This document shows, one piece after another, positions 42,725-43,558 of a stretch of DNA of 64,000 nucleotides. The translations under genes and the position numbers were made by a program. Within the stretch, counting starts at the first letter, position 1, and every line of letters begins with the position of its first letter. The stretch is from NCBI GenBank assembly GCA_022641775.1, contig JALCDS010000005.1, positions 22,299 to 86,298 on the forward strand, given 5' to 3'. Under the pieces are notes generated by a model. It was not told the origin of the DNA. It saw nothing but the letters and a program-made list of their open reading frames with translations, and ran no database searches. The DNA is from Clostridiaceae bacterium (lineage in GTDB: Bacteria > Cyanobacteriota > Vampirovibrionia > Gastranaerophilales > Gastranaerophilaceae).

Positions 42725-42792
42725 AAAAGAATTATATAATAAAAGTACGAATTTGAAAAAACTTTATACTTATGTAATAATAAAAAAGTTAT

Positions 42793-42864
42793 GCGGAAGT
42801 AATTTAGTGGTAGAATGCTTCCTTCCCAAGGAAGATGTCGCGGGTTCGAGTCCCGTCTTCCGCT
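42793..42864 (+). tRNA. tRNA-Gly (anticodon CCC)
   Basis: Manual cloverleaf. Acceptor GCGGAAG/CTTCCGC. Anticodon arm CTTCC-TTCCCAA-GGAAG. T arm GCGGG-TTCGAGT-CCCGT. Discriminator U. CCA is not encoded. Confidence 0.95.
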
Positions 42865-42889
42865 TTTTAGATTTTGAGGTAATTAAAAA

Positions 42890-43048
42890 TTACGGGAGGA
42901 GAACCCACAAAGCGTGGCTTTGTCTGTGGTTCGAACGCAAACGAGCTGAGGGCGAAGACTTGACTGTGTAATAAACGAAGTTTATGTAACAGACAATCGT
43001 AGTCCCGTTAATAGCGAGTGAGCAAGACAGTCCCCGTCTTCCGCTCCA
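42890..43048 (+). ncRNA. candidate structured RNA co-transcribed with tRNA-Gly, ending in a tRNA-acceptor-like helix plus CCA
   Basis: G+C-rich relative to its flanks. Pairings: GGGCGAAGAC (42950..42959) with GTCTTCCGCTC (43036..43046); GACTGT (42962..42967) with ACAGTC (43027..43032); ATAAAC-GAA-GTTTAT hairpin (42971..42985). No terminator occurs before 43076. Confidence 0.3.
43029..43048 (+). repeat. direct repeat of the tRNA-Gly 3' end (one extra C) followed by CCA
   Basis: AGTCCCCGTCTTCCGCT+CCA here, compared with AGTCCCGTCTTCCGCT at 42849..42864. Confidence 0.9.
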
Positions 43049-43075
43049 TTTTGTTTTTGATTTTATAATAAAAAA

Positions 43076-43102
43076 AGCACAAGAATAAATCTTGTGCTTT
43101 TT
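43076..43102. terminator. bidirectional rho-independent terminator
   Basis: AGCACAAGA-ataaa-TCTTGTGCT, flanked by an A-run and a T-run. It lies between the tRNA/ncRNA unit (+) and the 144-aa ORF (-). Confidence 0.75.
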
Positions 43103-43123: not shown

Positions 43124-43558
43124 TTAAACATCAATGTCTCTTGCGCTACAGCATTTTGATACAATCCAAGAAATTACACCTACACCGAAAATTGAACCCG
43201 GCAATGTCCATACTGTTTGAGTATGTTTTATTTGTTGAACTAATTCTTTATCTTTTTTTGGATCTAAACCATATTTTTCTGCAACTGTATTATTTGAACG
43301 ACATGCATAATATAAGGTTGAGAAAACTCCTCCAAATATTGTCCATCCTGCTGCTTTATTTCTTGCAGATTTAATTAAATCTTGTTTTTCTTCCGTTGTC
43401 ATATTTGCGGATCTTCCGCATTCATTATCAGTTCTTTCAAAAGCATCACAAGAGTCACAATGTTTGCTGTGACCTGTAAATGGAGTACTGCGTCTTACAC
43501 TTGATAATTGTGATATATTTGGCATTGAATTAACGTTTGAAACCATTAAATTTGACAT
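43124..43558 (-). CDS. hypothetical membrane protein with TPFTG leader
   Basis: 144 aa. S/N-rich N-terminus, CDSCD motif, and two predicted TM segments. Confidence 0.5.
   Translation of the reverse strand: MSNLMVSNVNSMPNISQLSSVRRSTPFTGHSKHCDSCDAFERTDNECGRSANMTTEEKQDLIKSARNKAAGWTIFGGVFSTLYYACRSNNTVAEKYGLDPKKDKELVQQIKHTQTVWTLPGSIFGVGVISWIVSKCCSARDIDV

Follow-up and report, generated by a model that had tools for sequence, protein, structure and literature searches.

We analyzed a 64,000-nucleotide stretch of contig JALCDS010000005.1 (positions 22,299 to 86,298, assembly GCA_022641775.1; hereafter the window) from a member of the Gastranaerophilaceae, focusing on a short structured segment behind its tRNA-Gly(CCC) gene. 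This gene is the single tRNA in the window according to ARAGORN and to Rfam. It is complete and lacks an encoded CCA, running instead into TTTTAG. Its last 16 nt, AGTCCCGTCTTCCGCT (42849-42864), are repeated at 43029-43045 with one extra C within the C run, and a CCA follows directly (43046-43048). By simple counting, a 16-nt match within 200 nt has a chance probability of about 1e-7. The two copies part exactly after the discriminator base, where the proximal copy continues with TTTTAG and the distal copy with CCATTT; the extra C of the distal copy would break the T-stem. Between the copies lie 164 nt with a G+C content of 45-47%, compared with 32% genome-wide, and with no credible open reading frame (ORF). 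On the plus strand, the only terminator-like hairpin stands behind the distal copy, and none separates tRNA-Gly from the segment. The repeat of the tRNA 3' end, the CCA behind its distal copy, the high G+C content, the lack of an ORF, and the position of the terminator had been pointed out in the initial annotation of the sequence, and our reanalysis bears them out. Three origins had been suggested there: the scar of a deleted integrative element at an attachment (att) site, a tRNA-like minihelix noncoding RNA, or a degenerate tandem tRNA. The features of the locus are collected in Table 1.

Table 1. Features at the tRNA-Gly(CCC) locus in window coordinates; the last row lists cores at stop codons in contig coordinates.
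Feature	Position	Strand	Basis or remark
Promoter-like site 5' of tRNA-Gly: TTGAAA-17-AATAAT, TG ahead of second hexamer	42753..42781	+	consensus match only
tRNA-Gly(CCC), intact, no encoded CCA	42793..42864	+	ARAGORN; Rfam RF00005, 68.4 bits, full length
Proximal repeat copy, tRNA A58 to discriminator	42849..42864	+	TTTTAG next
A+T-rich spacer of the unit, without terminator in this copy	42865..42891	+	
Inverted T-arm ("guide")	42892..42906	+	
Small hairpin ACAAAGC-GTG-GCTTTGT	42907..42923	+	alignment A1
GGTTCGA, T-arm copy from about G52 to A58, left junction of core	42928..42934	+	
Rod-like hairpin core, 94 nt	42935..43028	+	model R1, 71.6 bits, E 4.8e-15
Core P3 helix, two tandem G.A included	42937-42946 with 43014-43023	+	
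Core P4 helix	42950-42952 with 43004-43006	+	
Core apical hairpin	42971-42985	+	
Core conserved GTTAATA	43007-43013	+	
Distal repeat copy, A58 to discriminator with one extra C, then CCA	43029..43048	+	
Bidirectional intrinsic terminator, shared with convergent gene 43124-43558	43072..43102	.	hairpin scan
Cores at stop codons	L003 (G000 C4:30291-30384), L004 (C10:72976-73172), C31:10497, C21:5225, C2:68129, C13:12280		

The segment is one copy of a composite unit whose parts keep a constant order: an intact tRNA, a spacer, an inverted T-arm with the loop GAGAA, a small hairpin, (G)GTTCGA, a hairpin core, and then tRNA sequence from A58 to the 3' end. Within the inverted arm, ACGGGA is complementary to the 3' strand of the T-stem and GAACC to GGTTC. 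The stem of the small hairpin covaries in other copies, where the loop is GAAA, GAA, or UUCG. GGTTCGA, previously noticed as a T-loop-like element, is indeed present and tracks the neighboring tRNA, reading GGGTTCAA beside tRNA-His. Excising the core from the window copy yields GGTTCGA/GTCCCCGTCTTCCGCTCCA (slashes mark junctions), a sequence made up of the T-arm and 3' end of tRNA-Gly; an equivalent result is obtained behind tRNA-Tyr, tRNA-Asn, and tRNA-Arg(CCT) of the source genome and, in other genera, behind tRNAs for Gly (three isoacceptors), Leu, Lys, Thr, and His. Across 75 parsed units, the left junction reads GTTCGA/GCG and the right junction CAAGAC/A-N59-T-C, and these units carry att-like direct repeats of the tRNA 3' end as the window copy does (16 of 17 nt). 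No coreless unit, in which GTTCGA would be followed directly by N59-TC, was seen among loci that had mostly been chosen by a pattern including the core. The derivation of GGTTCGA and of the distal 3' end from a tRNA agrees with one part of the degenerate-tandem-tRNA proposal, but D and anticodon arms are lacking, and neither ARAGORN nor Rfam reports a second tRNA.

The inverted arm changes with the tRNA. At informative T-stem positions, that is, sites where the two strands are not Watson-Crick complements, 12 of 17 cases agree with the reverse complement of the 3' strand and 2 of 17 with the 5' strand read directly. Modeled on a single strand, the arm can pair with both sides of the junction, GAAC with G53-C56 and the guide with positions 59-65, and the guide pairing often reaches the acceptor strand across an A or TAT bulge. 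The GA of the arm would then oppose G57 A58 (42933-42934), forming a tandem G.A at the precise point where the core exits the helix. On the minus strand (42890-42910), the inverted arm resembles a T-arm hairpin (GGG TTCTCCT CCC) with a run of T behind it; our scan called it terminator-like, and it may be a chance occurrence in A+T-rich DNA.

The core spans approximately 75 to 100 nt across copies, starts with GCGNGAGNGAGC, and ends with GCGANCGANCAAGAC; in the window, its 3' end is the CAAGAC that finishes at 43028. Paralogs of the interval from approximately 42936 to 43029 occur within the 1.71-Mb source genome at 77-84% identity, and a covariance model (R1) finds 21 core copies there, the window copy scoring as in Table 1. 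Six of the 21 cores lie inside tRNA-gene pieces, and the remainder are solo or tandem. No match in 42865-43048 reached the gathering score of any Rfam family, nor was a tRNA found up to an E value of 10; the matches obtained under permissive settings were terminator look-alikes far below thresholds.

Alignment of 56 cores revealed a shared fold. Its closing helix (P3) contains two invariant tandem G.A/A.G motifs flanking covarying Watson-Crick pairs: one of these is U-A in 29, C-G in 21, and G-C in 4 copies, and another is C-G in 36 (35 in a second count), U-A in 9, G-C in 8, and U-G in 2 copies. The second helix (P4, 3 bp) is paired in 56/56 cores with four pair types. Overall, P3 and P4 are 98-100% paired with compensatory changes, and the window copy retains P3 through a compensatory A-T pair. 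RNAalifold applied to the raw alignment missed the helix containing G.A pairs, and the structure was therefore set by hand and then tested for covariation. The observed covariation was reached by none of 500 column shuffles and was abolished when pairing partners were slid. Minimum free energy folding of the core recovers P3 and P4; folding the whole segment alone is uninformative (z = -1.8), and its pairing differs from the family fold. In 56/56 cores, folding is better on the sense strand than on the antisense strand, and the plus-strand folds contain 90 G.U pairs and no A.C single mismatches. The modeled structure therefore belongs to the tRNA-sense strand, as RNA or as single-stranded DNA.

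This family fold also revises the pairing proposed in the initial annotation. The hairpin ATAAAC-GAA-GTTTAT is present as the apical hairpin of the core. The acceptor-like helix in which GGGCGAAGAC (42950-42959) would pair with 43036-43046 conflicts with the covariation-backed structure, in which 42950-42952 pair with 43004-43006 and GAAG belongs to a conserved purine-rich internal loop. The stretch equivalent to GGGCGAAGAC in other copies is GTGCGAAGGC, whichever tRNA adjoins; the acceptor-like helix is not conserved, and its 5' strand is identical beside other tRNAs. An inner helix GACTGT/ACAGTC was likewise not confirmed.

We scanned 185,579 species-representative genomes for an exact pattern consisting of the inverted arm and the start of the core. 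At least 119 stretches were recovered, nearly all from Gastranaerophilales, Gastranaerophilaceae, or Melainabacteria metagenome-assembled genomes (MAGs) of guts and rumens. Most units (106 of 136) lie within 1.2 kb downstream of a tRNA on the same strand, and at least 22 tRNA species are involved. With model R1, cores were detected in 45 of the 50 genomes sampled from this family, at 1 to 27 copies each, and none of 100 genomes belonging to other families of the phylum had any; units are also present in at least one further family of the order. Among relatives, some genomes have a unit at their tRNA-Gly loci and others do not. Tandem units occur with 1.5 or 2 copies, many units are truncated on the right by unrelated sequence, and the end point of the distal repeat varies, from 0 nt beyond the tRNA up to a complete second unit. 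For 44 of 56 cores, the most similar core lies at another tRNA species, with identities up to 92%. Judged from these sequences, the unit behaves as repetitive, probably mobile DNA and unlike a gene kept for one function.

Membership of the segment in this repeat family, with its architecture, junctions, fold, patchiness, and decay, is a matter of direct observation. On this basis, we propose that the segment represents a single unit of a mobile repeat that is gene-less, non-autonomous, and lineage-specific, and that it lies within the T-loop of tRNA-Gly(CCC); to this reading we assign a rough probability of 0.6. The original suggestion of an att scar anticipated part of it, in that the repeats behave like attL and attR and the distal copy resembles a displaced native end. 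As a complete explanation, in which a larger tRNA-integrated island (a prophage or an integrative and conjugative element) was deleted to leave a remnant of the cis-mobilizable element (CIME) type, a scar appears highly improbable. It would account for the direct repeats of the tRNA 3' end around the segment, for a distal copy with CCA and its own terminator, and for the integrase fragments beside tRNA-Arg(TCT) in the source genome, but a later deletion is not what happened here: the 164 nt are a complete small unit, and units of 160-260 nt with conserved internal parts recur, across dozens of genomes, downstream of at least 22 tRNA species. Moreover, none of the loci read contained an intact island between the two repeats, no integrase was seen within 4 kb of any of approximately 150 loci in species-representative genomes, and the core also occurs solo at stop codons.

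We also considered whether the arrangement could have arisen locally, without movement of any unit, by a template-switch fold-back that re-copied the tRNA's own T-arm and was followed by arrival of a core, similar to a repetitive extragenic palindrome (REP), in the extra T-loop. The direct-inverted-direct order of T-arms would, by our reasoning, fit two template switches at a palindrome. Furthermore, between nearest pairs at different tRNAs, the block of similarity is the core alone, and the small hairpin differs. However, the parts not derived from a tRNA (GAGAAC with its G.A, the position of the hairpin, and the core after A58) are the same across tRNA species and genera, and therefore an independent origin each time is unlikely. 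The proximal and distal copies in the window also differ exactly at the tRNA end. We consider a local rearrangement improbable.

CCA is encoded in the tRNA-Gly(CCC) of four relatives, one with an empty locus (L006) and three with occupied loci (L007, L017, and L023). A distal CCA without a proximal CCA, together with a different terminator, is also found at L019, L029, L050, L071, and L085. Because the copies diverge at the tRNA end, relatives encode CCA, and the distal copy has an extra C, we infer from these sequences that the native end has been displaced to the distal position and is decaying there, and that the functional tRNA relies on a 3' end imported by the unit. Retro-copying of a mature tRNA end was considered as a source of the distal CCA and rejected: most distal copies match the CCA state of their tRNA, the reverse case exists (L134), and the source genome, which is 93.7% complete, has no RVT_1 match.

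In the proposed mobile repeat, the unit would extend from tRNA position 59 to the end of CAAGAC at 43028 and would bring a replacement tRNA 3' end, leaving the gene intact; the native 3' end, with CCA and its own terminator, would have been pushed 180 nt downstream, where it decays. Integration could be a Campbell-type event in which the tRNA 3' segment recombines with its identical counterpart on an intermediate, circular or tandem, that carries tRNA positions 59-76 next to the core end. Such a process would explain why the repeat always starts at A58, the joint of core and tRNA, and ends at a variable point, which would be where the imported spacer stops resembling the recipient flank. Unequal exchange between the repeats might then generate tandem units or clean loss, and deletion might generate truncated copies. 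The core would be a hairpin module that exchanges independently and also lands at stop codons, and its folded strand, single-stranded DNA or RNA, may be what the putative machinery recognizes. A doubtful extension of this model is that the inverted T-arm is a 13- to 20-nt guide by which the unit encodes its own target recognition, such that rewriting of the guide and the 3' end lets the family colonize at least 22 tRNA species. Guided insertion of this kind would presumably involve a host enzyme or a type of enzyme not yet linked to transposition, that is, insertion that is transposase-less or mobilized in trans, and the landing of cores at stop codons would represent a second targeting mode.

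Several results weigh against a mobile unit. No transposase or integrase is linked to the unit: the source genome contains no Y1_Tnp, TnpB (zinc ribbon), RVT_1, or IS110 (both domains) match. It has five tyrosine-recombinase matches, two of which resemble a Xer pair and two of which are fragments beside tRNA-Arg(TCT); none adjoins a unit, and tblastn found no homolog within 4 kb on either side of approximately 150 unit-bearing loci in species-representative genomes. Y1 genes do occur in 36 of 81 relatives, but these are flanked by a different, GTAG-tagged REP (GTAGGTTGGGG...CCCCAAC) with no core nearby. We found no ORF-bearing copy of the unit and no phage copy; the exact pattern gave two chance matches in high-G+C coding DNA among viral contigs. 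No orthologous empty site was established within one genus, where the flanks are only 75-79% identical and synteny is broken, and following synteny through the downstream gene, which is too poorly conserved, gave matches in 2 of 60 other genomes. The proposed mechanism also does not explain how an arm for a new tRNA is acquired, and placement of solo cores exactly at native stops has no explanation as a simple DNA target.

Three further observations concern recombination genes and synteny at these loci. The two tyrosine-recombinase fragments beside tRNA-Arg(TCT) (G000, the source genome, C20:23348-25946) lie within 1.5 kb downstream of this tRNA, one with an internal stop, and are probably the remnant of a conventional tRNA-integrated element; no distal tRNA repeat was found on that contig. 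At L168, L170, and L171 (relatives G086, G015, and G077), RAYT-like Y1 genes (REP-associated tyrosine transposases) of approximately 175-195 amino acids are flanked by inverted GTAG-type REPs, GTAGGTTGGGGTTTCTACCCCAAC and variants, which form a separate REP system in the same bacterial family. At L176 (G167 C7:262000-263600), the tRNA-Gln side and the downstream gene are found on different contigs or in distant places in congeners, and this unit may lie at a synteny break.

The solo cores provide a second view of the family. In at least six solo or tandem core arrays, the first core base is the G of a TAG stop codon that ends a long ORF (126-502 codons), and all of these arrays lie in the sense orientation. 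Their hosts include rplN-like, rplL-like, and dnaB-like genes, and the rplN-like and rplL-like products presumably end at their usual C-termini. These positions raise the possibility that the unit is instead a functional structured RNA, co-transcribed with the tRNA or, for solo cores, with the upstream mRNA, and acting as a 3'-end stabilizer or as a processing or punctuation signal whose 5' edge is a cleavage site, with the arms giving a minihelix-like fold whose end is the 3' strand of the acceptor. The covarying helices with invariant non-Watson-Crick motifs, the strand specificity, and the tolerance of G.U and not of A.C would all be expected of such an RNA, and the conserved GUUNAAN resembles a T-loop motif in our own reading. 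Units behind tRNAs are always in the sense orientation, and the window has no terminator between tRNA and unit and one right behind it. The suggestion of a minihelix RNA is thereby upheld in one respect, a conserved strand-specific fold, and contradicted in another, the unconserved acceptor helix. On the other side, a terminator-like hairpin separates tRNA and unit in 35 of 64 units, tandem and truncated copies are common, occurrence among relatives is patchy (0 to 27 copies per genome), the unit is tied to no particular tRNA, and no Rfam family matches. We therefore regard a functional RNA as an unlikely account of the family and retain the mobile repeat as the preferred reading.

Related arrangements were noticed elsewhere in the source genome, outside the window. 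Upstream of tRNA-Leu(TAG) (L002:1380-1800, C33) lie two partial copies of the 5' part of the tRNA, with the D-loop broken by a palindromic insert of approximately 40 nt (ACTCTGCCG...AAACGAT...ATCGTTT...GAGAGG); the outer copy also bears a core at GGTAGACA/core/CGCT. The whole arrangement mirrors the 3'-side units. Downstream of tRNA-Phe (C26:700-1010), a direct copy of the T-arm and 3' end has its T-loop replaced by the small palindrome (CCTCTCGTAAAACGAT...ATCGTTTTACTCGGCAGAGT) of these tRNA-Leu 5' copies. A second class of units is found at tRNA-Pro(CGG) (C10:30074-30300) and tRNA-Ser(GCT) (C16:24100-24470). These consist of an unmodified inverted T-arm, hairpins, and a tRNA 3'-end copy starting from position 59, with a different cargo (…CTGTA.GGCTCGTGATGCTCGCC.TACAG…). 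The Ser copy carries CCA on its distal repeat only, and the class also occurs behind tRNA-Gly(GCC) in L018.

If the unit is mobile, it would be a very small element that enters an essential gene harmlessly because it carries the replacement part. It also appears to carry a readable target address and would then be a compact natural case of guided site-specific insertion. Its mobility would explain part of the variation of tRNA loci, and part of the contig breaks, in gut Melainabacteria MAGs. Should it be an RNA signal, tRNA and mRNA transcripts would be terminated or processed in a manner particular to this lineage, for the latter exactly at stop codons. The family is absent from Rfam, and our literature search found no description of it; annotators of these genomes should mask or name it.

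Among known systems, CIMEs and tandem accretion at tRNA att sites (PMC5704250, PMC7563491) share with the unit gene-less DNA lying within direct repeats of a tRNA 3' end, an imported 3' end that preserves the tRNA, and tandem copies at the same site. Compared with the kilobases of CIMEs (PMC5704250), the unit is ten to a hundred times smaller at 160-260 nt, additionally contains a structured core and an inverted T-arm, serves at least 22 tRNA species, its arms being rewritten for each, and has no known integrase-bearing relative (none was found). We also compared the core with integron attC sites and rejected this assignment: the conserved GTT is part of an internal loop that is unpaired, an inverse box is missing, and the neighboring genes are housekeeping genes; no dedicated search for an integron integrase was made.

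IS200/IS605 elements offer a possible parallel for the putative guide; in them, an internal guide beside a subterminal hairpin reads the target and cleavage sites (PMC6006769). The layout of the unit is compatible with such ends: its putative guide directly adjoins, on the 5' side, a hairpin close to the left end, and a hairpin with a short tail forms the right end; insertion would occur 3' of the recognized sequence, with the target kept on the left, and the fold is strand specific. The guides of IS200/IS605 are 4-5 nt long, whereas that of the unit has 13-20 nt, would pair with both sides of the junction, and is accompanied by a replacement tRNA end; neither TnpA (Y1) nor TnpB was found in the source genome. 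The unit also recalls REPs, REP doublets forming hairpins (REPINs), and bacterial interspersed mosaic elements (BIMEs), which are mobilized by RAYTs (PMC3733652, PMC3337134, PMC3479197) and are likewise short, G+C-rich, strand-specific hairpins dispersed after genes, often in tandem, lineage specific, and variable in copy number. The core differs from them in its length of 75-100 nt, its two tandem G.A motifs, and the lack of a GTAG or CGTC tag; the source genome has no RAYT, and the RAYT-like genes of relatives are flanked by another REP. We know of no REPs in T-loop copies or exactly on stop codons.

The closest analogy in behavior is provided by the GC clusters that spread in yeast mitochondrial genomes (PMC4478555) and the double-hairpin elements of Allomyces cited there. 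Like the unit, these organellar clusters are G+C-rich folded elements in an A+T-rich, compact genome, with a constrained hairpin, tandem arrays, and no known transposase. The target is very short in both cases, AG for the yeast clusters (PMC4478555) and A, with TA/G at stops, for the core described here. The unit differs in its bacterial host, its larger size, its tRNA-specific arms, and the tRNA 3' end that it restores.

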